A DNA stretch of 59,521 bases. Source: Candidatus Fibrimonas termitidis (GTDB taxonomy: Bacteria; Fibrobacterota; Fibrobacteria; Fibrobacterales; Fibrobacteraceae). Position numbers and translations under genes: made by a program. The stretch is taken from the NCBI GenBank assembly GCA_001462245.1, contig LIUG01000158.1, forward strand, positions 401-59,921, in the 5' to 3' direction. This document shows, piece by piece, positions 7,053 to 15,939 of this stretch (the stretch's first letter is position 1; every line of letters begins with the position of its first letter). The notes under the pieces are model-generated. The model worked only from the letters and a program-made list of their open reading frames with translations. It was not told where the DNA came from and searched no databases.

Positions 7053-7081
7053 TTGACAACGGCTCGAAAAAAATCTATATT
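7053..7081 (+). promoter_or_regulatory. consensus sigma-70 promoter TTGACA-N17-TATATT
   Basis: TTGACA 7053-7058, 17-nt spacer, TATATT 7076-7081. About 60-nt leader with SD AGAGG before ATG 7144. Confidence 0.7.
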
Positions 7082-7143: not shown

Positions 7144-8577
7144 ATGAGCTATAACAAATATGCTCTCGCTCTCGTTTTTGCCTGCTTTTTGAGCGCATTT
7201 GCGCAGGAGCAACCAGAAAAAATAGCCGTCTATGTGTTCGGCGCCAGCGAAGCCAACATAAACAAGTCCTTTGGCAACAAGCTGCTTGCGTCAATTACGC
7301 AAAGCGACAAGTATGCGGAGATAAAGGATTCGGAAACCTTTTACAAGGAGCTTGCGAAAAACAATGAGGAGGGTGTAAGCCAAATATCCCAGACGGGCAA
7401 GCGGCATGGCGCGGACTATGTTTGCGTAGTGAGCCTTACCGAGGTGTTTGGCTCCTATTCCATCTTTGCCCGCATAATAAAGACCTCCGATGCCGAGGCA
7501 ATCAGAACCGCCTCTTTGGACCGTTCTCTTAAATCCCTAGATGACCTCGCCCGTGCTTCCAATGAGCTTGTCAGCCAGCTTTTTCAATTGCAGCCCCAAA
7601 CGCCTGCGCCTCCTCCCGCAACTCCCGTGCCAGCCGTTGTTCCCCCAATGGCATTGGCAGCCCAAAAGGAGTGCTCAAACAAGCTGAACATCAACGAGAT
7701 TCTTTCCAAGATACAGAGCAGCATTCTCCCGCAGTTGAAGGATTGTTCGGGCACCTTGGCCAAGGATATGGCTTTGGCTATGTCTCCTTTTGGCAAGAAG
7801 GGTGCGGCACCGCAGCCTGTGCCGTTTATGAAGGAGTGCACGATTGACGGCATCAAGAAGAAATTGCCTGATGGCGCAGATGAGTATATTAAGCCCATTG
7901 AGAAATTTTTGCAGAATGTTATGAATGCGGCATCTGCTGGCGGCAGTTTGGATGTCAAAAAGCTTCCGGGCATTATCAGCGGGCTTAATGTGAATGATCT
8001 TATAAATGAGTTGAAGGCTAAGGCGGCTAATGATGAGTGTGTGGTTGATGAGCCTTATACGCAGCCGGTTGCCGATGAGGAAGAGGAAGGCGGTTCTGGT
8101 GATGAGGGAGGCAGGAAAATAGTGTCTCTGGGTTTTAGGGGTGGGTTGAATTTTTCGCATATGAACGTAGATAATAATCATTCTTATAATCCCACCTTGG
8201 GTTTTCAAGGGGGTTTGGTTCTTGACATAGCTTCTAACATAGCTTCTATTAGCTGGTTTCATATCCAGTTCGGTGTTATGTATATCCAAAAAGGAGCGAA
8301 AGATGACGCTGGCACAGTTGCGACTTTGCATAATATTGAAATTCCTTTGCTGCTATCGCCTAAATTTTCTGCGCTCAGGCTTAATGCTGGTCCGTATTTT
8401 GGCATATGCCTTGGCGGGGATATTGAATGCGACGATCTTGATATTGGTATCAGCACGGGCTTTGGCTTTGATATAGGCATGTTTTACATAGGTATGTTTT
8501 ATGACTATGGCTTGGTTAGACATTGGGATTATTTTTCCAACCGCACATTTGGCTTTAATTTAGGGGTAAATCTATGA
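7144..8577 (+). CDS. secreted two-domain protein: LpoB/CsgG/FlgO-like N-domain, Pro-rich linker, C-terminal OMP beta-barrel-like domain
   Basis: Signal peptide LVFACFLSAFAQE. N-domain ADYVCVVSLTEVFGSYSIFARIIKTSDAEAI, PQTPAPPPATPVPAVVPP linker, and Gly/aromatic-rich C-terminus ending FGFNLGVNL. Confidence 0.45.
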   Translation: MSYNKYALALVFACFLSAFAQEQPEKIAVYVFGASEANINKSFGNKLLASITQSDKYAEIKDSETFYKELAKNNEEGVSQISQTGKRHGADYVCVVSLTEVFGSYSIFARIIKTSDAEAIRTASLDRSLKSLDDLARASNELVSQLFQLQPQTPAPPPATPVPAVVPPMALAAQKECSNKLNINEILSKIQSSILPQLKDCSGTLAKDMALAMSPFGKKGAAPQPVPFMKECTIDGIKKKLPDGADEYIKPIEKFLQNVMNAASAGGSLDVKKLPGIISGLNVNDLINELKAKAANDECVVDEPYTQPVADEEEEGGSGDEGGRKIVSLGFRGGLNFSHMNVDNNHSYNPTLGFQGGLVLDIASNIASISWFHIQFGVMYIQKGAKDDAGTVATLHNIEIPLLLSPKFSALRLNAGPYFGICLGGDIECDDLDIGISTGFGFDIGMFYIGMFYDYGLVRHWDYFSNRTFGFNLGVNL

Positions 8578-9378: not shown

Positions 9379-9609
9379 ATGATCCCCGATAGCCTTTTAT
9401 CAAAGAAAAAAATTCCCTTGTCATATAAGGGATACATCAATCGAACTATTGAGGATTATGGTGCCATGACAGGAGCCGAACTTAGCGAAAAGACCCATAA
9501 AGAAAAACCTTGGCTCGATGCTATCGGAGACGCAAATACACCGAAGAACTCAAATCGCATAATAACCCATCTGAAGCCAATGGTGCCTAGCACCGTGTGG
9601 TTTACATAG
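9379..9609 (+). CDS. 76-aa ORF resembling only the C-terminal part of a DUF4065/Panacea (SocA-like) domain; possible gene remnant
   Basis: GAMTGAELSEKTHKEKPW resembles the conserved ...L...TH...pW segment; the N-terminal half of the domain is absent. TATAAA 7 nt upstream of the ATG. 3' end overlaps the convergent ATPase gene by 8 nt. Confidence 0.3.
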   Translation: MIPDSLLSKKKIPLSYKGYINRTIEDYGAMTGAELSEKTHKEKPWLDAIGDANTPKNSNRIITHLKPMVPSTVWFT

Positions 9610-10798
9610 GGTTTGAAGTCAAAAAATCCAGAGCATTTATGGTTTTTATGCCGTTATCGTTGCTTGTGCCGCGGTCCATGGTTATTATGAATTTTTCGTA
9701 ATTGTCCTTTATTTTTTCCAATGGAGCCAGCTCCCGTTCAAGGGTGCTTTTTTCACGAACCGTATAAGCAACTTGATAATATGAAGGGATGCCATCTCTG
9801 AAAGCTATAAAATCTATCTCCAAATTTCCAAGCCTGCCTACAAAAACCTCATAGCCTCTTCTGATGAGTTCCAAATATACGATGTTTTCCAAAATTGAAC
9901 CGTAGTCCTTTCTCTTATCACCCCAAAGATAACGCCTAATCCCCAAGTCTGCAACAAAGTATTTATCATTTGCCTTTAAGTATTCTCTGCCGTTTACATC
10001 CAAACGGTTTACCTTGTAAATCACATAGCAGTCTTGCAAAGCTGCCAAGTAATTTTCAACCGTTTGCACGGAAATTTTGAAACCAAAGGTTTTCAGTGTG
10101 TCGGATATTTTTTTTGTTGAAGTTAAGAAGCCTATATTGCCAAAGATAAATTTTACAAGCCTTTCCAGAGCTGCAATTTCACTTATTTTTTTTCTCTGAA
10201 CCACGTCTTTCAGAATAACGGTATTCATTATGCCTGCCAGATAATCGTTTATCTTCTCTCTGTTAAAACCAAGTTCCATAGCATAAGGAAAAGAGCTGAA
10301 ATTTATGTAATTCTCAAAAAGTTTTTCGCGGTCAATATCCTTGAATGCAGAGCAATATTCCTTAAAAGAAAGCGGCATCATCTCAATTGAAACATAACGC
10401 CCAGACAGGAATGTGGCAAGTTCACCAGACAAAAAATACGCATTTGAGCCGGTTATGTATAAATCTATATTTTTTCGCAAGTTCAGGCTATTTATCACTT
10501 TCTCAAAACTCGGAACAACTTGAATTTCGTCCAAGAAAACATAGTGCGTTTTTTCTGCTCCGGTTTTTTCTGCAATGTATTTATGCAAAATTTTAGGGTC
10601 GGCAAGTTCTGAGTTTTCAAAATCCTCAAAATTTATGAATATAATCCTTTTTTGCGGAACGCCTATGGAATGCAGATAATCAATATAAAGTTTTAGCAGA
10701 GTTGACTTTCCGCAACGCCTTATACCCATTACAACCTTTATAAGCTCAGAATCCTTAAAAGCTATGAGTTTATTCAAATATTCCGTTCTTTGGATCAT
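9602..10798 (-). CDS. AAA+ ATPase of the AAA_14/DUF4143 type
   Basis: Walker A GIRRCGKSTLL, Walker B-like YVFLDEIQ, and a C-terminal region typical of DUF4143 proteins. Confidence 0.7.
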   Translation of the reverse strand: MIQRTEYLNKLIAFKDSELIKVVMGIRRCGKSTLLKLYIDYLHSIGVPQKRIIFINFEDFENSELADPKILHKYIAEKTGAEKTHYVFLDEIQVVPSFEKVINSLNLRKNIDLYITGSNAYFLSGELATFLSGRYVSIEMMPLSFKEYCSAFKDIDREKLFENYINFSSFPYAMELGFNREKINDYLAGIMNTVILKDVVQRKKISEIAALERLVKFIFGNIGFLTSTKKISDTLKTFGFKISVQTVENYLAALQDCYVIYKVNRLDVNGREYLKANDKYFVADLGIRRYLWGDKRKDYGSILENIVYLELIRRGYEVFVGRLGNLEIDFIAFRDGIPSYYQVAYTVREKSTLERELAPLEKIKDNYEKFIITMDRGTSNDNGIKTINALDFLTSNPM

Positions 10799-10805
10799 AA
10801 TTTTA

Positions 10806-10815
10806 AATATACATT
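10806..10815 (-). promoter_or_regulatory. -10-like element AATGTATATT, 7 nt before ATG of the ATPase gene
   Basis: Minus strand reads AATGTATATT-TAAAATT-ATG(10798). Confidence 0.45.
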
Positions 10816-10884
10816 AAATTTACAGAAAAAGTACAAAAAATTTAAGGTGCATGTGAAATTTTTTGTAATTTGAGAATATAATCC

Positions 10885-10912
10885 CTGTCGTTTTAGGGCT
10901 GTCGTTTTAGGG
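10885..10912. repeat. perfect 14-bp tandem duplication CTGTCGTTTTAGGG x2 abutting a -35 box
   Basis: 10885-10898 and 10899-10912 are identical; they end 1 nt before TTGACA. Confidence 0.95.
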
Positions 10913-10913
10913 G

Positions 10914-10942
10914 TTGACAAGCCACTTCTTTTTTGCTATATT
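10914..10942 (+). promoter_or_regulatory. consensus sigma-70 promoter TTGACA-N17-TATATT of the sulfur operon
   Basis: TTGACA 10914-10919, 17-nt spacer, TATATT 10937-10942. Confidence 0.7.
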
Positions 10943-10953
10943 TAAGCCTGATT

Positions 10954-11034
10954 ATGGCTTTGAGCAACAAAACATCGTTCTCTAAACACCTGTGCTGTCG
11001 AGTGTTCTCCAGCAACAGACTTTGTTGTTGCTAA
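10954..11034 (+). CDS. Cys-rich leader peptide (26 aa) MALSNKTSFSKHLCCRVFSSNRLCCC
   Basis: First ATG after the promoter, 11 nt from the -10. 5 of 26 codons are Cys (CC at 10993-10998, terminal CCC at 11023-11031), then TAA at 11032-11034. Lies in the roughly 150-nt leader of a sulfur-assimilation operon. Confidence 0.55.
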   Translation: MALSNKTSFSKHLCCRVFSSNRLCCC

Positions 11035-11041
11035 AATTTTT
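11011..11041 (+). terminator. candidate attenuator hairpin plus T-run overlapping the poly-Cys codons
   Basis: AGCAACA (11011-11017) pairs with TGTTGCT (11026-32), 8-nt loop, then AAAATTTTT. Competing pairing with AGCAACAA at 10963-10970. Stem is short (7 bp, 3 GC), so strength is uncertain. Confidence 0.35.
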
Positions 11042-11100
11042 CCAAAAAATCCGTATCTCACGGTGGCTTTCGCACCATAAAAGAAAGGTTCTAATAGGAG

Positions 11101-11967
11101 ATGAATATGGCAATTGATTATAAAGCGTTGAAGAATGGCGGTTTTATGCGGCAGGTGCAGAAAAATAATTTCTCCCTGCGGTTGAAAGTTGTTGGTGGCA
11201 ATCTGACGGCAGGCCAGTTGCTCGCCATTGCCGATATCAGCAAAAAATACGGAGATGGGCATATCCACTTGACCTCACGGCAGGGGGTGGAAATTCCTTT
11301 TATCAAACTGGAGGACGTTGAGCAGGTCAAGGCCGAACTGGAAGCGGGCGGGGTGAACACCGGCGTTTGCGGCCCAAGGGTGCGGACGGTTACCGCCTGT
11401 CAGGGCAATGCGGTCTGTCCTTCGGGCTGTATAGATACTTACCCGCTGGGGGTGGAAATTTCCGAGCGGTACTTTGGGAAGGAATTGCCGCACAAGTTCA
11501 AATTTGGCATTACCGGCTGTGCGAACAACTGCTTGAAAGCTGAGGAAAATGATTTGGGTGTAAAGGGCGGCTATACCATTGAATTTGTTAAGGAAAGCTG
11601 TTCCTTATGCGGCGTGTGCATCAAGGCTTGCCGCGAGGGCGCAATTGCCAAAATTGACAACGAAATTGTGCTTGATAAATCCAAATGCAATAATTGCGGG
11701 CGGTGTGTGAAATCCTGCCCCTTTGATGCATGGAAGGGCGAGCCGGGATACATTCTCTCTTTCGGCGGGCTTTTCGGCAACCAGATTGCTAAAGGCGAGC
11801 AATTTTTGCCTATTATCCGAGACAAGGAAATTTTGTTCCGTGTGGCGGATGCGGCACTCGCTTTTTTTGACAAGCACGCAAAACCCAGCGAGAGATTTCG
11901 CATAGCCATTGACCGCACGGGCTGGGATGCATTCAAAACCGAAATGGAGGTTGCTTATCATGGATGA
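11101..11967 (+). CDS. small assimilatory-type sulfite reductase (nitrite/sulfite reductase 4Fe-4S/sirohaem domain plus 2x[4Fe-4S] ferredoxin insert)
   Basis: HLTSRQGVEIPF, Cys clusters TACQGNAVCPSGC and GCANNCLK, and ferredoxin motifs CSLCGVCIKAC and CNNCGRCVKSCP. SD AGGAG favours the second ATG (11107). Confidence 0.75.
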   Translation: MNMAIDYKALKNGGFMRQVQKNNFSLRLKVVGGNLTAGQLLAIADISKKYGDGHIHLTSRQGVEIPFIKLEDVEQVKAELEAGGVNTGVCGPRVRTVTACQGNAVCPSGCIDTYPLGVEISERYFGKELPHKFKFGITGCANNCLKAEENDLGVKGGYTIEFVKESCSLCGVCIKACREGAIAKIDNEIVLDKSKCNNCGRCVKSCPFDAWKGEPGYILSFGGLFGNQIAKGEQFLPIIRDKEILFRVADAALAFFDKHAKPSERFRIAIDRTGWDAFKTEMEVAYHG

Positions 11968-12217
11968 TTTTGCCATAGATGAAAGCATAGACATCACCGA
12001 TGTGGTATGCCCCGTGACCTTTGTGAAAGCGAAGGTTGCGCTTGAAGAACTGGAAGAGGGTCAAGTTCTCTCTATTCGTTTAAACGATGGCGAGCCTGTG
12101 CAAAACGTGCCTCGCAGCATCAAAGAAGAGGGGCACCGGATTATCAAACTCGCAGACAACGGGGACGGAACCTATAATCTGATTGTTAAAAAAGTTGAAA
12201 ACCAAGGAGAAACATAA
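11960..12217 (+). CDS. TusA/SirA-like sulfurtransferase
   Basis: ITDVVCPVTFVKAKVALEEL (Cys-Pro motif); about 85 aa. ATG 11960 overlaps the reductase stop by 8 nt. Confidence 0.7.
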   Translation: MDDFAIDESIDITDVVCPVTFVKAKVALEELEEGQVLSIRLNDGEPVQNVPRSIKEEGHRIIKLADNGDGTYNLIVKKVENQGET

Positions 12218-12218
12218 A

Positions 12219-12434
12219 ATGAAGCTTACTGTATCGGGCAATGAAAAAGAATACGCCGATGGTCTGAGCGTTGCGCAGTTGATAGAACTGGAAAAAGTGG
12301 AAACGCCGCAGTATGTGACTGTTTCCGTCAACGATGAGTTTGTGGAGAGCGGGGCATTCGCCGAGACTTCTCTCAATGCCGGAGACATCGTGGAATTCCT
12401 GTACTTTATGGGTGGGGGGCAATATGGCTTTTAG
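12219..12434 (+). CDS. ThiS/MoaD-type sulfur-carrier protein with C-terminal extension after Gly-Gly
   Basis: 71 aa from ATG 12219 (SD AAGGAGA at 12204-12210). Ends ...VEFLYFMGGGQYGF, so the GG is masked by a short tail. Confidence 0.75.
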   Translation: MKLTVSGNEKEYADGLSVAQLIELEKVETPQYVTVSVNDEFVESGAFAETSLNAGDIVEFLYFMGGGQYGF

Positions 12435-13224
12435 CAATGAGCAGTTGGAGCGATATTCCCGCCACATAATACTACAGGAAGTCGGAGCGAAGGGGCAGAA
12501 AAAACTGATGGATGCCAAGGTTCTGATAATAGGCGCAGGTGGTTTGGGTGCACCCGCCGCCTTGTATCTTGCAGCCGCAGGTGTTGGCACTATCGGTATT
12601 GCCGATGCCGACGAGGTTGATCTTTCCAATCTTCAGCGGCAGGTGATCCACTCCACGCCGGATGTGGGCAAGGCAAAAGTTCTTTCCGCAAAAGAAAGCA
12701 TGAACGCCATAAACCCGGAAGTGACAGTCAACACTTATCAAGAGTTTGTGGATGCGAGCAACATCACGGATTTAATCGCCGACTATGATTTTATCATTGA
12801 CGGCACAGACAATTTTCCGGCGAAGTTCCTAATCAACGATGCTTGTGTTCTTTCAAAGAAGCCCTTTTCCCATGCGGGCATTATCCGTTTCAAAGGTCAG
12901 TTGATGACTTATGTCCCCGGCGCAGGTCCGTGCTACCGCTGTGTGTTCCGTGAGCCCCCTCCCCCCGAGGCCGTGCCAACGTGCAGGCAAGCAGGCGTTA
13001 TCGGAGCGATAGGCGGCATAATAGGTTCGCTGCAAGCGATGGAAACGGTAAAGTTCATAATCGGCAAAGGCGATTTGCTCACAGGCTCCCTGCTCACATA
13101 CGATGCGTTGAAAATGGAGTTCCGCAAAATCAAGCTTCCGAAAGCGAAGAACTGCGCAGTGTGCGGAGAAAGCCCCTCCATTCTAAAACCTTTTGACTAC
13201 GAACAGGCGGTGTGCAAATTATGA
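12424..13224 (+). CDS. ThiF/MoeB/HesA-family E1-like adenylyltransferase
   Basis: RYSRHIILQEVG, nucleotide loop IIGAGGLGAP, and zinc motifs CYRC...CAVC; no rhodanese domain. Start ATG 12424 overlaps the carrier tail by 11 nt. Confidence 0.85.
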   Translation: MAFSNEQLERYSRHIILQEVGAKGQKKLMDAKVLIIGAGGLGAPAALYLAAAGVGTIGIADADEVDLSNLQRQVIHSTPDVGKAKVLSAKESMNAINPEVTVNTYQEFVDASNITDLIADYDFIIDGTDNFPAKFLINDACVLSKKPFSHAGIIRFKGQLMTYVPGAGPCYRCVFREPPPPEAVPTCRQAGVIGAIGGIIGSLQAMETVKFIIGKGDLLTGSLLTYDALKMEFRKIKLPKAKNCAVCGESPSILKPFDYEQAVCKL

Positions 13225-13637
13225 TAACCATCCGTTTGAAACAGCAGGATTGCAAATCCATAATCGCTCATGCCAAAAACGGTTTGCCCAATGAGGCTTG
13301 CGGGCTGCTCGCAGGAAAAGCGGATGGCGATGTAAAAACGGTGGAGAAGGTTTATCTCTTATCTAACCCGGACAGCAGCCCTGAGCATTTCTCCATAGAT
13401 CCTAAGGAGCAATTGGCGGCGGTCAAGGATATGAGGGCGAATGGTTTTGTTCCTCTTGGGAATTTTCATTCCCATCCGTCAACTCCGGCGCGTCTTTCTG
13501 AAGAGGACATACGGCTTGCTTATGATGGGAAGGCTAGCTATCTCATTTTGTCGCTTGCCGGAGAAAGCCCTGTACTGAATGCGTTTGGAGTTGTGGGTGG
13601 TGAGGTTTTGCCGCAGGTAGTGGATTTACTAGATTAA
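13221..13637 (+). CDS. JAMM/MPN+ metalloprotease (Mec/HcyD-like)
   Basis: NEACG (Glu) and HSHPSTPARLSEED (H-x-H-x7-S-x2-D). ATGA overlap with the E1 stop; an alternative GTG start is at 13212. Confidence 0.8.
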   Translation: MITIRLKQQDCKSIIAHAKNGLPNEACGLLAGKADGDVKTVEKVYLLSNPDSSPEHFSIDPKEQLAAVKDMRANGFVPLGNFHSHPSTPARLSEEDIRLAYDGKASYLILSLAGESPVLNAFGVVGGEVLPQVVDLLD

Positions 13638-13644
13638 CAATCGG

Positions 13645-14037
13645 ATGAAATTCCTTGTTTTTATATTTGTGCTTCTTTTCTTAGCCTCCTGCACAACTAC
13701 TTCCATGGTGAGGGAAAATGCTTATGCACGCTATGAGGAGTATAAAAGCGCAGCAAAATACCATACAGATTCAGAAAAGGATTATCTGATTTTGCTTGAA
13801 AATTTGGAGAAATATCCTAAAGAACCATATCTTTTAACACGAAAGCAAATACTCCGCAGGGAAATTGAGCAAAACAGGCTGCTTATGCTGCAAGCTCGCT
13901 CCGAGTTTGAAAAAGCATTGCAGGAATGGGACTTAACGGTGCAAAAAATGGAAACCGGGTTGCCGAGAGATTCCATTGATTTAAGGCAAATCTTCGGACT
14001 GCCGTCCCCAAAGGATACGGTGCTGATTTATGAGTAA
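13645..14037 (+). CDS. small lipoprotein, unknown function
   Basis: Signal/lipobox FVLLFLASCTT; helical, charged remainder. Confidence 0.5.
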   Translation: MKFLVFIFVLLFLASCTTTSMVRENAYARYEEYKSAAKYHTDSEKDYLILLENLEKYPKEPYLLTRKQILRREIEQNRLLMLQARSEFEKALQEWDLTVQKMETGLPRDSIDLRQIFGLPSPKDTVLIYE

Positions 14038-14780
14038 ATTAGATTATACAATAACTTTAAAGCAAGTGAAATGCTTGCAATTTGAATAAACCTTTTTATC
14101 CAAATTTGATCGTGTTTGTGCTGGAATTTGCTACCCAGGTATCCGCCTAAAATTCCGCCTAAAGCCATGCAAAACGCAAGACTGAAGATTATTTTGCCGG
14201 CAAAAAACAGACCAACGGAGCTTATGAGCAAAAGCCAGATAGTTATGAAATTTTTAATGGCGTTCACATGCTTTAAATCCAGGCCGCTGTATTTACGCAG
14301 AGCGAAAATTTGAATAAAACCAACCCCCACCTGAAAAAGAGTGCCGTAAAAACCAACTGCTATAAACCCCAGAAATGCTTTTATGCCCGGTTTTGCGGGT
14401 GGAGCCTCGGGGGGTTTTCCAAAAGGATCTGTGCCAAGAGAACTCATAATTGCAACTGCAACCATAACAACGGCGAGCAAGCCTTGAAAGGTGGAATCAT
14501 CAATTGTCACAACGAGCAGAGTTCCGAGCAGAGCACCCATGATGGTAGGTGGCAAAAGCATTTTAGCGATATCCATTCGCAAATAGCCATAACGCCTTAA
14601 ACTGAATACGGAACTGAAAACCCCTATAAGCATTCCAAATCGATTTGTTCCGTTCGCAACGGTAGGCGGCAAACCGAGCAAAATCATAATTGGCAAACTG
14701 AGAGCACTAGCTCCACCGGCGATATTGTTTATAAAACCAACAATAAGGCCAAGAGCAAAAAAAATTAGACCTTCAAACAC
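14028..14780 (-). CDS. TauE/SafE (TSUP, DUF81) family anion/sulfite-type permease
   Basis: Polytopic membrane protein with GGASALSLPIMILLGLPPTVANGTNRFGMLIG and an internally repeated half. GTG start. Confidence 0.75.
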   Translation of the reverse strand: MFEGLIFFALGLIVGFINNIAGGASALSLPIMILLGLPPTVANGTNRFGMLIGVFSSVFSLRRYGYLRMDIAKMLLPPTIMGALLGTLLVVTIDDSTFQGLLAVVMVAVAIMSSLGTDPFGKPPEAPPAKPGIKAFLGFIAVGFYGTLFQVGVGFIQIFALRKYSGLDLKHVNAIKNFITIWLLLISSVGLFFAGKIIFSLAFCMALGGILGGYLGSKFQHKHDQIWIKRFIQIASISLALKLLYNLIYS

Positions 14781-14820: not shown

Positions 14821-15178
14821 AACGGGTGGCGGGTTGTCGCTGTGCTTTTGCGCAGAGGAAAGTCCGGGCATCATAGAGCAAAGTGCCGGCTAACGGCCGG
14901 AACCGGTAACGGTATGGATAGCGCAACAGAAAACAAACCGCCGGCTTGAAAGAGCCGGTAAGGGTGAAAAGGCGAGGTAAAAGCTCACCGCGCTTTTGGC
15001 AACAAAGGCGGCAGTGCAAGCCCCACTTGATGCAAGACCAAACAGAAATGAAAGCGTTGCTCGCGCTTGCTTTTGCTGCATTTCGGGTAGGTTGCTGGAA
15101 GCCATTGGCAACAGTGGCTCAAGAGAAATGACAACCGCGCTTAAATGCGAACAGAACCCGGCTTACAGCCACCCGTTT
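14821..15178 (+). ncRNA. rnpB: RNase P RNA, bacterial type A
   Basis: GAGGAAAGTCCGGGC at 14855-14869, GGTAAGGGTGAAA, and ACAGAACCCGGCTTAC at 15151-15166. P1 helix AACGGGTGGC (14821-14830) is perfectly complementary to GCCACCCGTT (15169-15178). Confidence 0.93.
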
Positions 15179-15939
15179 CAAAATCCAAGCGCTGCTCCCA
15201 AAATTATATTGTGAATATTGATGTTTTTTTTGCTAACCGATGTTGAATATTCAAGAGATAACCAAAAATTTCTCGTATTCTCCTTTAATTTTTCAAACTG
15301 TTCCCTTAGATTAAAAGCTATTGAGGCGCTAAAAGAAGCTATAAAGGCTCCATTAAATGCCAAATCCAAATTATGTCCGAAATTTAAACCCCAATTTGGC
15401 GTTGCCAAAAAACCGACGCCGCTTTGGTAGCCAATGCTTGAACCTATTTCCCCATACAATTCATCGCAATGAGTTTTTACGTTTTCATTATGATTTCCCA
15501 TATTTGAAAATTCTCTTCTCAGATCGCTCAGTGTGGTATTTTCAAAAGAGAATACGGGGCCTATGAATAAGACGTATCTTGGCTGGCTGTGCGCAATTTT
15601 TGCATCTATTGAATATCTTTGGTTTATTATGTTACGCATGGAATCCGGTTCCCCGCCTAAAAATTTGATGCTCGCTCCGCCGGATAAATGGGAATTGTAG
15701 GAATAATTTCCGTGGCCTGTCCATGTCCATAAAGTTTTGCAATTTGTGCTGTTAATGGTACCCAGCCCCATTCCGGCGGTTAATCCTTTGTCTTGCGCTA
15801 TACCGTGCCCCGGCAGAGGAATGCCGATGGCATGGGAATTCACCGATAATATTAACAGCAGTAAAAGAAATTGAGAATAATCAGTAGCCCGCTTGAGCGA
15901 ATAATTTAGCCACTGACATGTTGTACTCATAGACCGCAA
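15178..15939 (-). CDS. hypothetical outer-membrane beta-barrel-like protein
   Basis: Hydrophobic signal FLLLLLILSVNSHA, Gly/aromatic-rich sequence, C-terminus ...LGAALGF. 5' end overlaps the TolC-like gene; stop abuts the rnpB 3' end. Confidence 0.4.
   Translation of the reverse strand: MRSMSTTCQWLNYSLKRATDYSQFLLLLLILSVNSHAIGIPLPGHGIAQDKGLTAGMGLGTINSTNCKTLWTWTGHGNYSYNSHLSGGASIKFLGGEPDSMRNIINQRYSIDAKIAHSQPRYVLFIGPVFSFENTTLSDLRREFSNMGNHNENVKTHCDELYGEIGSSIGYQSGVGFLATPNWGLNFGHNLDLAFNGAFIASFSASIAFNLREQFEKLKENTRNFWLSLEYSTSVSKKNINIHNIILGAALGF

Follow-up and report, generated by a model that had tools for sequence, protein, structure and literature searches.

A short, hitherto unannotated reading frame rich in cysteine codons lies upstream of a sulfite reductase and sulfur-carrier operon in Candidatus Fibrimonas termitidis. 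In the window, by which we mean the whole 59,521-nucleotide stretch analyzed, it occupies positions 10954–11034 of the forward strand and consists of 26 codons and TAA, encoding the peptide MALSNKTSFSKHLCCRVFSSNRLCCC. With its promoter and a conserved block behind its stop codon, this leader forms a cassette that, on the evidence of sequence comparison, heads essentially the whole sulfate-assimilation pathway of its clade. The reading that we favor, at a probability of roughly 0.6, is that the leader is a ribosome-mediated cysteine sensor that defines a small sulfur regulon. An initial annotation of this DNA had proposed a cysteine-responsive attenuator at this place, modeled on the trp and his leaders; its account of the promoter, the reading frame and the operon agrees with what we find, and the intrinsic terminator of that model is weakly supported.

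The leader cassette and its copies

The open reading frame (ORF) reads ATG GCT TTG AGC AAC AAA ACA TCG TTC TCT AAA CAC CTG TGC TGT CGA GTG TTC TCC AGC AAC AGA CTT TGT TGT TGC TAA. Its cysteines are placed exactly as first annotated, with an internal pair (CC; TGC TGT) at codons 14–15 (10993–10998) that is invariant in all copies described below, and a terminal run (CCC; TGT TGT TGC) at 11023–11031 that abuts the stop codon. Five Cys in 25 codons have a probability of ~1e-5 at the genomic Cys frequency of 1.2%, and of ~1.4e-3 for random sequence; across the leaders the Cys share is 19–22%, versus 1.2% genome-wide. A single leader sequence is nevertheless not decisive, since 5 of the 1536 small ORFs of the window show a CCC or two CC by chance. 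Codon choice is suggestive as well. The terminal run is mostly TGT, the rarer Cys codon in the genome (34 TGT versus 141 TGC), and R16 is encoded by CGA, which the long ORFs of the window use less than any other Arg codon (31/633); the codon after the CC pair is CGA in 9/12 full-length copies and AGA in the other 3.

For comparison we assembled 99 loci (L001–L099) in addition to the window. The closest Sir relatives, from a scan of species-representative genomes, are the metagenome-assembled genomes (MAGs) GUT31 (95%) and GUT307 (93%) and Candidatus Fibrimonas, which places the window among termite-gut Fibromonadales. Judged by their GenBank accession prefixes (LIUH, LIUI), which come next after the LIUG given for IN01_221 in PMC4704652, GUT31 and GUT307 probably correspond to IN01_31 and IN01_307, population genomes from the same paper. 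The shared module spans ~185 nucleotides (nt) and comprises TTGACA-17-TATATT, an ATG 11 nt past the -10, a 26–28-codon ORF and a conserved 3′ block. Thirteen copies are present (the window, L002, L081, L086 and L089–L097), all of them in termite-gut Fibromonadales MAGs or metagenomes, and a hidden Markov model of the leader finds exactly these 13 and nothing else in the 99 loci and the window, where the nhmmer match spans 10950–11089. The search that led to three of the copies (L002, L081 and L086) started from Sir and made no use of the leader peptide; the nine from metagenomes were fetched by back-translated VFSSNRLCC followed by TG, with which the next Cys codon begins. The initial annotation had made Cys richness of the short ORF in relatives a test of its proposal, and 12 further copies carry the Cys codons. 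Among 80 species-representative genomes searched for Cys-rich small ORFs upstream of sir, only L002 qualifies; the Cys-rich ORFs seen in Ruminococcus are out-of-frame artifacts within the upstream gene L041 1748–2995, which by its sequence resembles an O-acetylhomoserine sulfhydrylase gene (metY).

The module heads seven gene contexts, namely sir, cysD, cysN, a cysD′-cysN fusion, tusA-thiS-thiF, sbp and one chemoreceptor locus. As in the window, it precedes sir in L002 (GUT307), which was found via Sir. It stands before cysD-cysN-sir-tusA-thiS-thiF-JAB both in L086 (annotated Candidatus Fibromonas, also found via Sir) and in the metagenome locus L094, and before the cysD′-cysN fusion, followed by sir, in L081, which was found via further Sir homologues. 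The remaining metagenome copies precede cysN (L092, L093), tusA-thiS-thiF-JAB-hemA (L095), the sulfate ABC binding protein gene sbp (NF008022, 477 bits), with a putative permease gene recognized by eye behind it (L090, L091, L096, L097), and genes for a small membrane protein and a chemoreceptor (L089). Placement before sulfur genes is what a cysteine-responsive leader predicts, and it parallels the mycobacterial ‘Cys ribulon’ (10.1101/834739). The shared sequence extends from just 5′ of the -35 (CCCTTGACAA) to CACCATAAAAGAA, beyond which it follows the downstream gene; because homology stops there and then varies by downstream gene, the module has the character of a portable promoter-plus-leader cassette. 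In L081 the first gene after the leader (837–2483) joins a CysD-like N-terminus (MPLTHFDKLEAEAI) straight to a full CysN, which looks like a deletion of most of cysD with its remnant fused to cysN.

The differences among the copies indicate that the leader ORF is under purifying selection at the protein level and that its Cys codons are conserved. In the 12 other loci the peptide has the form M-x3-N-K/I-x3-S-KHLCCRVFSSNRLCCC(C/R), the start ATG and the stop codon are conserved, and CCC, CCCC or CCCR stands directly before the stop in 12/12 full copies. Codons 2–10 show 14 nonsynonymous and 4 synonymous changes, for a neutral expectation of ~22% synonymous; codons 11–25 (KHLCCRVFSSNRLCC) show zero amino-acid changes across the copies. 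In the four unbiased copies, those found independently of the peptide, 6/6 changes in codons 11–25 are synonymous, which at a neutral silent fraction of 27/135 = 0.20 gives p ~6e-5. Three silent changes fall at the first codon position, and they are of the only kinds that the code permits there (CTG/TTG, CGA/AGA, CTT/TTG). Insertions and deletions (indels) within the ORF are +3 nt only, all of them at the terminal Cys run (CCC, CCCC, CCCR; TGT/CGC indels), and those in the noncoding sequence outside it are of 1 nt and of 8–9 nt. From codon 11 to the stop, leaders are 86–93% identical when indel columns are scored as mismatches, against an identity at the four-fold sites of sir of only 54% between the window and L086 and 48% between L002 and L086. 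The leader ORF appears to evolve as a translated gene, from which we infer translation itself. Neither the 3′ block nor the other strand yielded a second conserved ORF, the frames being broken by 1-nt indels, and a protein database search with the 43-aa antisense ORF that is called over the leader in L081 gave no candidate homologues.

The promoter was correctly located from the outset, with the -35 TTGACA at 10914–10919, a T-rich spacer of 17 nt between 10919 and 10937, and the -10 TATATT at 10937–10942, preceded by TG at 10935–36. It scores 11/12 in a promoter scan, and the first 20 kb contain 2 sites of this quality. In 11/12 full-length copies the two hexamers are kept, as is the TTTTTC immediately 5′ of the -10. 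Transcription would be expected to start at ~10949–10951. Because the leader ATG at 10954 lies only 11 nt 3′ of the conserved -10, with no Shine-Dalgarno (SD) sequence, the ORF would be near-leaderless, as had been proposed, with a 5′ untranslated region of ~3–5 nt; initiation would take place there if the ORF is translated, as its coding signature implies. A second TTGACA-17-TATATT of equal quality is found at 7053–7081 of the forward strand, upstream of an outer-membrane beta-barrel gene (7144–8577), which suggests that the organism uses this arrangement as its standard strong promoter type. Abutting the -35 box, the 14-mer CTGTCGTTTTAGGG is exactly duplicated in tandem (10885–10912). We considered this repeat as a shared operator and rejected it; it lies outside the shared module, since it is absent in all 12 other leader copies, and it may reflect a local slippage event or a protein-binding site specific to the window.

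RNA pairing and the sequence behind the stop codon

Four segments of the leader RNA can pair with one another. Segment A (AGCAACAAAAC, 10963–10973) covers codons 4–7 and the first two bases of codon 8 and contains a second AGCAACAA at 10963–70; its AACA core does not vary, in contrast to the codons around it. Segment D (CTGTGCTG, 10990–10997) lies over the internal Cys pair, segment B (CAGCAACAG, 11010–11018) covers the last base of codon 19, codons 20–21 and two bases of codon 22, and segment C (11022–11032) is mostly the terminal Cys run. In the consensus fold of 12 copies, A pairs with C and so closes the whole upstream ORF (uORF), enclosing a hairpin of D with B, together with GAG/CUC; segment D there is CUGUGCUG, which includes the CC pair. 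The alternative is a local hairpin of B with C, whose arms AGCAACA (11011–11017) and TGTTGCT (11026–11032) are followed by AAAATTTTT. Both the arms and the mutually exclusive pairing of the Cys run, with 10963–73 or with 11010–18, had been described before, and the first of these pairings is now part of the consensus fold. A further small stem, AACAC (10985–89) with GTGTT (11002–06), is present in the letters as had been noted, but it is one of several alternatives and does not enter the consensus fold. We also rejected a long-range helix picked out by eye, CACCUGUG (10988–95) with CACGGUG (11059–65), which shows no compensatory change and is likewise not in the consensus fold.

The B:C hairpin (-8.6 kcal/mol) is more stable than shuffled sequences (z = -2.8, 5/200), and the whole uORF is modestly so (z = -1.2 to -2.0). 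Across 12 copies, pairing potential is kept in 97.5% of cells; since the arms consist of triplet repeats, ~77% of cells still pair after a 3-nt shift of register. Positions K11-H12 and those in loops and bulges, which are unpaired in the consensus fold, are also invariant, and the consensus structure alone thus does not explain the conservation of the peptide. The initial annotation held that a stalled ribosome prevents the hairpin from forming. Folding with ribosome constraints agrees for the terminal Cys run, where an occupying ribosome makes B:C impossible, but not for the internal pair, where a ribosome on C14-C15 frees segment B and B:C forms.

Directly after the stop codon lies an A/U-rich, G-free spacer (AATTTTTCCAAAAAAT, 11035–11050), the character of which is conserved in all copies. 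The first ~30 nt past the stop contain 0–2 G and scattered C, with a C/G ratio for the whole spacer of only 0.7–1.6 across copies, and we regard the spacer as a candidate entry region for Rho or an RNase. The conserved 3′ block follows (11051–11089), and homology among the copies ends with it. Two overlapping hairpins can be drawn within it, CCGT/ACGG (11051–54 with 11060–63) and GGTG/CACC (11062–65 with 11073–76), the latter followed by ATAAAAGAA (11077–85); the 3′-block hairpin has no U-tract. The element CTTTCGCACCATAAAAGAA is nearly invariant, with 1-nt and 8–9-nt indels around it, and the block is under selection, its candidate roles being those of a pause site, a termination site or a protein-binding site. 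Rfam returned no relevant family at gathering score for the whole window; for 10780–11130, searched at E up to 10, the best match was an unrelated Vibrio sRNA with E 0.56.

Models for the proposed response to cysteine

In the mechanism that we favor, a strong, probably constitutive sigma-70-type promoter would produce a transcript that starts 3–5 nt before the AUG, with no SD sequence, and ribosomes would read a leader of 26–28 codons with Cys at codons 14–15 and at the last 3–4 sense codons. When Cys-tRNA(Cys) is ample, the ribosome would finish and depart, the Cys run would pair with AGCAACA segments of the uORF itself, both the G-poor spacer and the 3′ block would lie exposed, and most transcripts would fail to reach the first structural gene. 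If Cys-tRNA(Cys) runs short, the ribosome would stall on the terminal Cys run beside the stop codon, keep the leader unfolded and mask the first 10–15 nt of the spacer, and full-length mRNA would result. For the output step we tentatively prefer, at well under even odds, premature termination of the Rho type, gated as in the tna operon. Protection from decay that depends on the stalled ribosome has a low probability in our estimate, and we rate a weak intrinsic hairpin no higher. In the tryptophanase operon of Escherichia coli (tnaC-Rho), and likewise for mgtA (mgtL/Rho), a ribosome standing at the end of the leader ORF determines whether Rho can gain access to the RNA just downstream. The present leader resembles both in that its regulatory codons adjoin the stop, with a G-poor stretch behind it. 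TnaC, however, responds to free tryptophan by way of its nascent chain at the stop codon, and what it induces is a catabolic operon, whereas hungry Cys codons here would induce an anabolic regulon, and the role of Rho is proposed by analogy.

Several points weigh against the cysteine-sensor reading. The start site, the translation and the response to cysteine are all deduced from the DNA of uncultured organisms. The copies are related and partly paralogous, so that the counts of changes are not counts of independent events, and the nine metagenome copies say nothing about conservation of the residues that their search pattern forced (VFSSNRLCC plus TG). The whole leader (10949–11110, 162 nt), the folding of which the initial annotation had named as a check, folds no better than shuffled sequences (z = -0.04), and no base pair shows a compensatory change among the copies, which are too similar to lend covariation support to any helix. 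A stall at the internal CC would favor the B:C hairpin, which complicates a simple on/off logic, and what points to a Rho entry site is a single G-poor stretch of 30 nt. The invariant non-Cys residues K-H-L..R-V-F-S-S-N-R-L would be superfluous for a plain hungry-codon sensor. Finally, the leader is clade-restricted and dispensable, as Sir orthologues of other Fibrobacterota and of other phyla do without it; inspection by eye and nhmmer found none before the Sir orthologues L001, L087, L088 (another Fibrobacteres MAG), L098 and L099.

Classical attenuation of the trp/his kind, in which the B:C hairpin and the U-run would form an intrinsic terminator that is blocked by a stalled ribosome or by pairing with 10963–70, was the model of the initial annotation and now seems to us unlikely. 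The hairpin is flagged by a terminator scan, exceeds shuffled sequences in stability, can form in all 12 copies and is abolished by a ribosome on the terminal Cys codons; the competing pairing of segment A is present in the consensus fold, and such a terminator is used by the cysS uORF of Rhodobacterales (PMC8632094). The stem, however, has 7–9 A/U-rich base pairs with 3 G-C pairs and lacks compensatory changes, four A stand between it and the U's, and the copies do not share the U-run (AAAAUU[U/C][U/C]C; UUCCCC, UUCUCU, UUUC). Terminator-like sites are not enriched in the genome either (32 found versus 25.4 expected). In expressomes, the RNA polymerase active site and the ribosomal P site are ~34 nt or more apart. 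With the polymerase at 11041, the lead ribosome would therefore have reached codon ~18 at most, and the terminal CCC could not act. A fast ribosome would moreover cover segment B and prevent termination at high Cys, and a stall on C14-C15 would free it and cause termination at low Cys. The hairpin would thus terminate under Cys starvation, the opposite of what an assimilation operon needs. Translational attenuation of the mycobacterial type, with the Cys tract masking the SD of the next gene, we consider quite improbable. The mechanism has been demonstrated experimentally for Ms5788A of M. smegmatis (10.1101/834739), and the layout is alike, with a leaderless-like start and a poly-Cys run in which a short ORF (sORF) ahead of cys genes ends. 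Here, however, the sequences complementary to the Cys tract are found inside the uORF, none of them at the downstream SD, and the conserved module stops 10–90 nt before an SD whose surroundings differ among the seven contexts. Constraint folding of the 12 full leaders also leaves the unpaired probability of the start region mostly unchanged by a stalled ribosome, and otherwise moves it in inconsistent directions (0.36 to 0.37, 0.42 to 0.42 and 0.50 to 0.50 in three examples; 0.50 to 0.35 in the window).

The conserved peptide could itself be the functional element, either as an arrest or sensor peptide like TnaC or SecM that responds to, for example, free cysteine, sulfide or redox state, or as a free Cys-rich microprotein; on balance we doubt this. 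In its favor, the 16-residue C-terminus is invariant at the protein level, in contrast to the freely varying N-terminus, and its length roughly matches what the exit tunnel accommodates; invariance extends to K11-H12 and the unpaired loop and bulge positions, the rare CGA follows the CC pair in most full-length copies, and Canestrari et al. consider this possibility too, for conserved non-Cys residues (10.1101/834739). Against it, the peptide lies at a variable distance from the stop codon (CCC, CCCC, CCCR), unlike in the stop-specific arrest of TnaC, and the overlapping alternative RNA pairings could constrain many of the nucleotides. A microprotein would not need to be re-encoded with its promoter before seven operon heads, and the search for homologous proteins, which used the antisense frame, found none on record. 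A noncoding element, be it a riboswitch, a protein-binding leader, a small RNA or a duplicated strong-promoter cassette, to which the ORF would be incidental, is the least probable of these accounts. It would fit the copying of the entire module, promoter included, as a unit, the conserved pairing potential, and the conservation of a 3′ block whose coding potential is broken by 1-nt indels. It is at odds with the synonymous-only pattern, silent first-position changes included, with the strictly in-frame indels of the ORF beside those of 1 and 8–9 nt outside it, and with the conserved ATG and stop; Rfam gives no match, and the folding energy is unexceptional.

A variant of the cysteine-sensor reading gives the peptide a part of its own. 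The invariant 16-residue C-terminus could be a nascent-chain module that cooperates with the hungry Cys codons and prolongs or tunes the stall where the poly-Cys run meets the stop codon, the stalled ribosome then gating Rho- or RNase-dependent loss of the transcript. We hold this addition to be speculative, with a probability no better than that of the lesser output steps above. If it were true, a cysteine-responsive arrest peptide would stand over the whole sulfate-assimilation regulon, in a cassette found at at least seven operon heads in Fibromonadales.

Genomic setting and known cysteine leaders

The operon behind the leader (11107–14037, forward strand; Pfam, NCBIfam, sequence and orthologous clusters) bears out its first description as a sulfite reductase and sulfur-carrier operon. 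Pfam and NCBIfam identify sir, encoding a small sulfite reductase (11107–11967), tusA (~11962–12217), thiS (from 12220), thiF/moeB (to 13224) and a JAB peptidase gene (13212–13637); a 130-aa ORF with no Pfam match (13645–14037) closes the operon, at a position that in relatives is held by hemA and siroheme genes. The SD of sir, AGGAG at 11096–11100, lies outside the conserved module and is too close to the ATG at 11101, so that the true start of sir is at 11107. With either start codon, the window's Sir is not on record as an exact protein. The sir product is 71–85% identical to copies in termite-gut Bacillota, Planctomycetaceae, Spirochaetia, Synergistaceae and Desulfovibrio MAGs (L003–L019). 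This identity is higher than expected across phyla and therefore suggests horizontal exchange of sir, perhaps of the cluster (11107–13637), within the termite gut. After the sulfur cluster follow a divergent TauE/SafE exporter gene (14028–14780, reverse strand) and, just downstream of it, a full-length RNase P RNA of bacterial class A (14821–15181, forward strand, 312 bits). Directly upstream of the leader, and divergent from it, lies an AAA_14/DUF4143 ATPase gene (9602–10798, reverse strand), beside which a 76-aa ORF (9379–9609, forward strand) has a weak SocA/Panacea antitoxin-domain match of 24.6 bits (Pfam cut-off 25.7). The two may be a defense or toxin-antitoxin remnant and appear unrelated to sulfur metabolism.

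Rfam scans of 12 loci, the leaderless L001, L087, L088, L098 and L099 among them, found no riboswitch. Two of these loci show other features near their sulfur genes. In L088 (Fibrobacteres bacterium R8-0-B4), two Rfam ‘Termite-leu’ motifs (RF01730, 56.8 bits each; 1108–1176 and 10719–10787) flank a sulfate-assimilation cluster that has no poly-Cys leader. The orthologous sulfur cluster of L098 comprises genes for an arylsulfotransferase and an NMT1-family binding protein with ABC permease and ATPase, then sir-tusA-thiS-thiF-JAB and hem genes. Promoter-proximal palindromes (ACATACTAAA...TAGTATGT) occur there at ~420–470 and 1840–1870; as they stand where the leader would be, they suggest repressor/operator control in that lineage.

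Leaders with runs of Cys codons have been described elsewhere. In mycobacteria, polycysteine leaderless sORFs (Ms5788A, the ‘Cys ribulon’) control cys operons (Canestrari et al. 2020, bioRxiv 10.1101/834739 / Mol Microbiol 114:93). The present leader resembles these in being a short ORF at the 5′ end of its transcript with consecutive Cys codons beside the stop, in heading different cysteine and sulfur operons in several copies as a regulon, and in conserving some non-Cys residues. It differs in phylum, in lacking sequence similarity and in having a second, internal CC pair; the Fibrobacterota ATG is probably 3–5 nt from the 5′ end rather than at +1, the Cys tract pairs inside the uORF rather than with a downstream SD, and the portable module, in which promoter and leader are copied together, ends before the SD. 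Seliverstov et al. (2005) also predicted leader peptides with Cys runs, ahead of cys/cbs operons of Mycobacterium, Propionibacterium acnes and Bifidobacterium longum, and suggested Rho-dependent, tna-like control, the output that we too prefer, for those that have no terminator (PMC1262725). These too have Cys codons near the stop and no convincing intrinsic terminator; unlike the present family, the leaders of that study are confined to Actinobacteria, occur there at single loci per genome and were predicted without a test for a coding signature. In Rhodobacterales, the motif uORFC-8-2 precedes cysS and has been interpreted as ribosome-mediated attenuation (Brewer et al. 2021, PMC8632094). 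Its uORF likewise carries tandem Cys codons within a stem, coincidentally at positions 14–15, but it controls a tRNA synthetase gene, has a clear terminator with a U-run and lacks a terminal poly-Cys; the two are unrelated in sequence, and the leader region has no relevant Rfam match. The trp/his/leu/thr attenuators of Proteobacteria share a leader rich in the cognate amino acid and alternative pairings that overlap the regulatory codons. In those systems, however, such codons belong to segment 1, and a strong terminator with its U-tract follows a good way downstream; in the present leader the main Cys run itself forms the last segment, behind which no canonical terminator is found.

The initial annotation knew of Cys leaders from mycobacteria; to these must be added the predictions for Propionibacterium and Bifidobacterium (PMC1262725) and for cysS of Rhodobacterales (PMC8632094). 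It was not aware of one from a Fibrobacterota-like organism, and our full-text literature searches, which did not join terms for Fibrobacterota to terms for leader peptides, likewise found none described for that phylum. The predicted leader family is unrelated in sequence to the known Cys leaders and shares with them its logic and its regulon-like deployment. It is apparently an independently evolved, nonhomologous sensor based on Cys codons, in a new phylum and with different wiring. To our knowledge, cysteine long went without a leader-peptide attenuator, and the sole case studied experimentally is the mycobacterial one.

We regard the comparative finding as well supported and the proposed mechanism as testable; it would not amount to a new principle. 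The strictly conserved non-Cys residues make the leader a candidate for studying the effects of nascent peptides on stalling at hungry codons, and the compact promoter-plus-sensor cassette of ~185 nt could possibly be used as a cysteine-responsive part. If the cysteine-sensor reading is true, the reading of sulfur status through Cys codons would be a recurrent solution, and genes for transport, activation, reduction and sulfur carriage would be controlled together. For the uncultured fiber degraders of the termite gut, it would provide the definition of a regulon and a regulatory handle.

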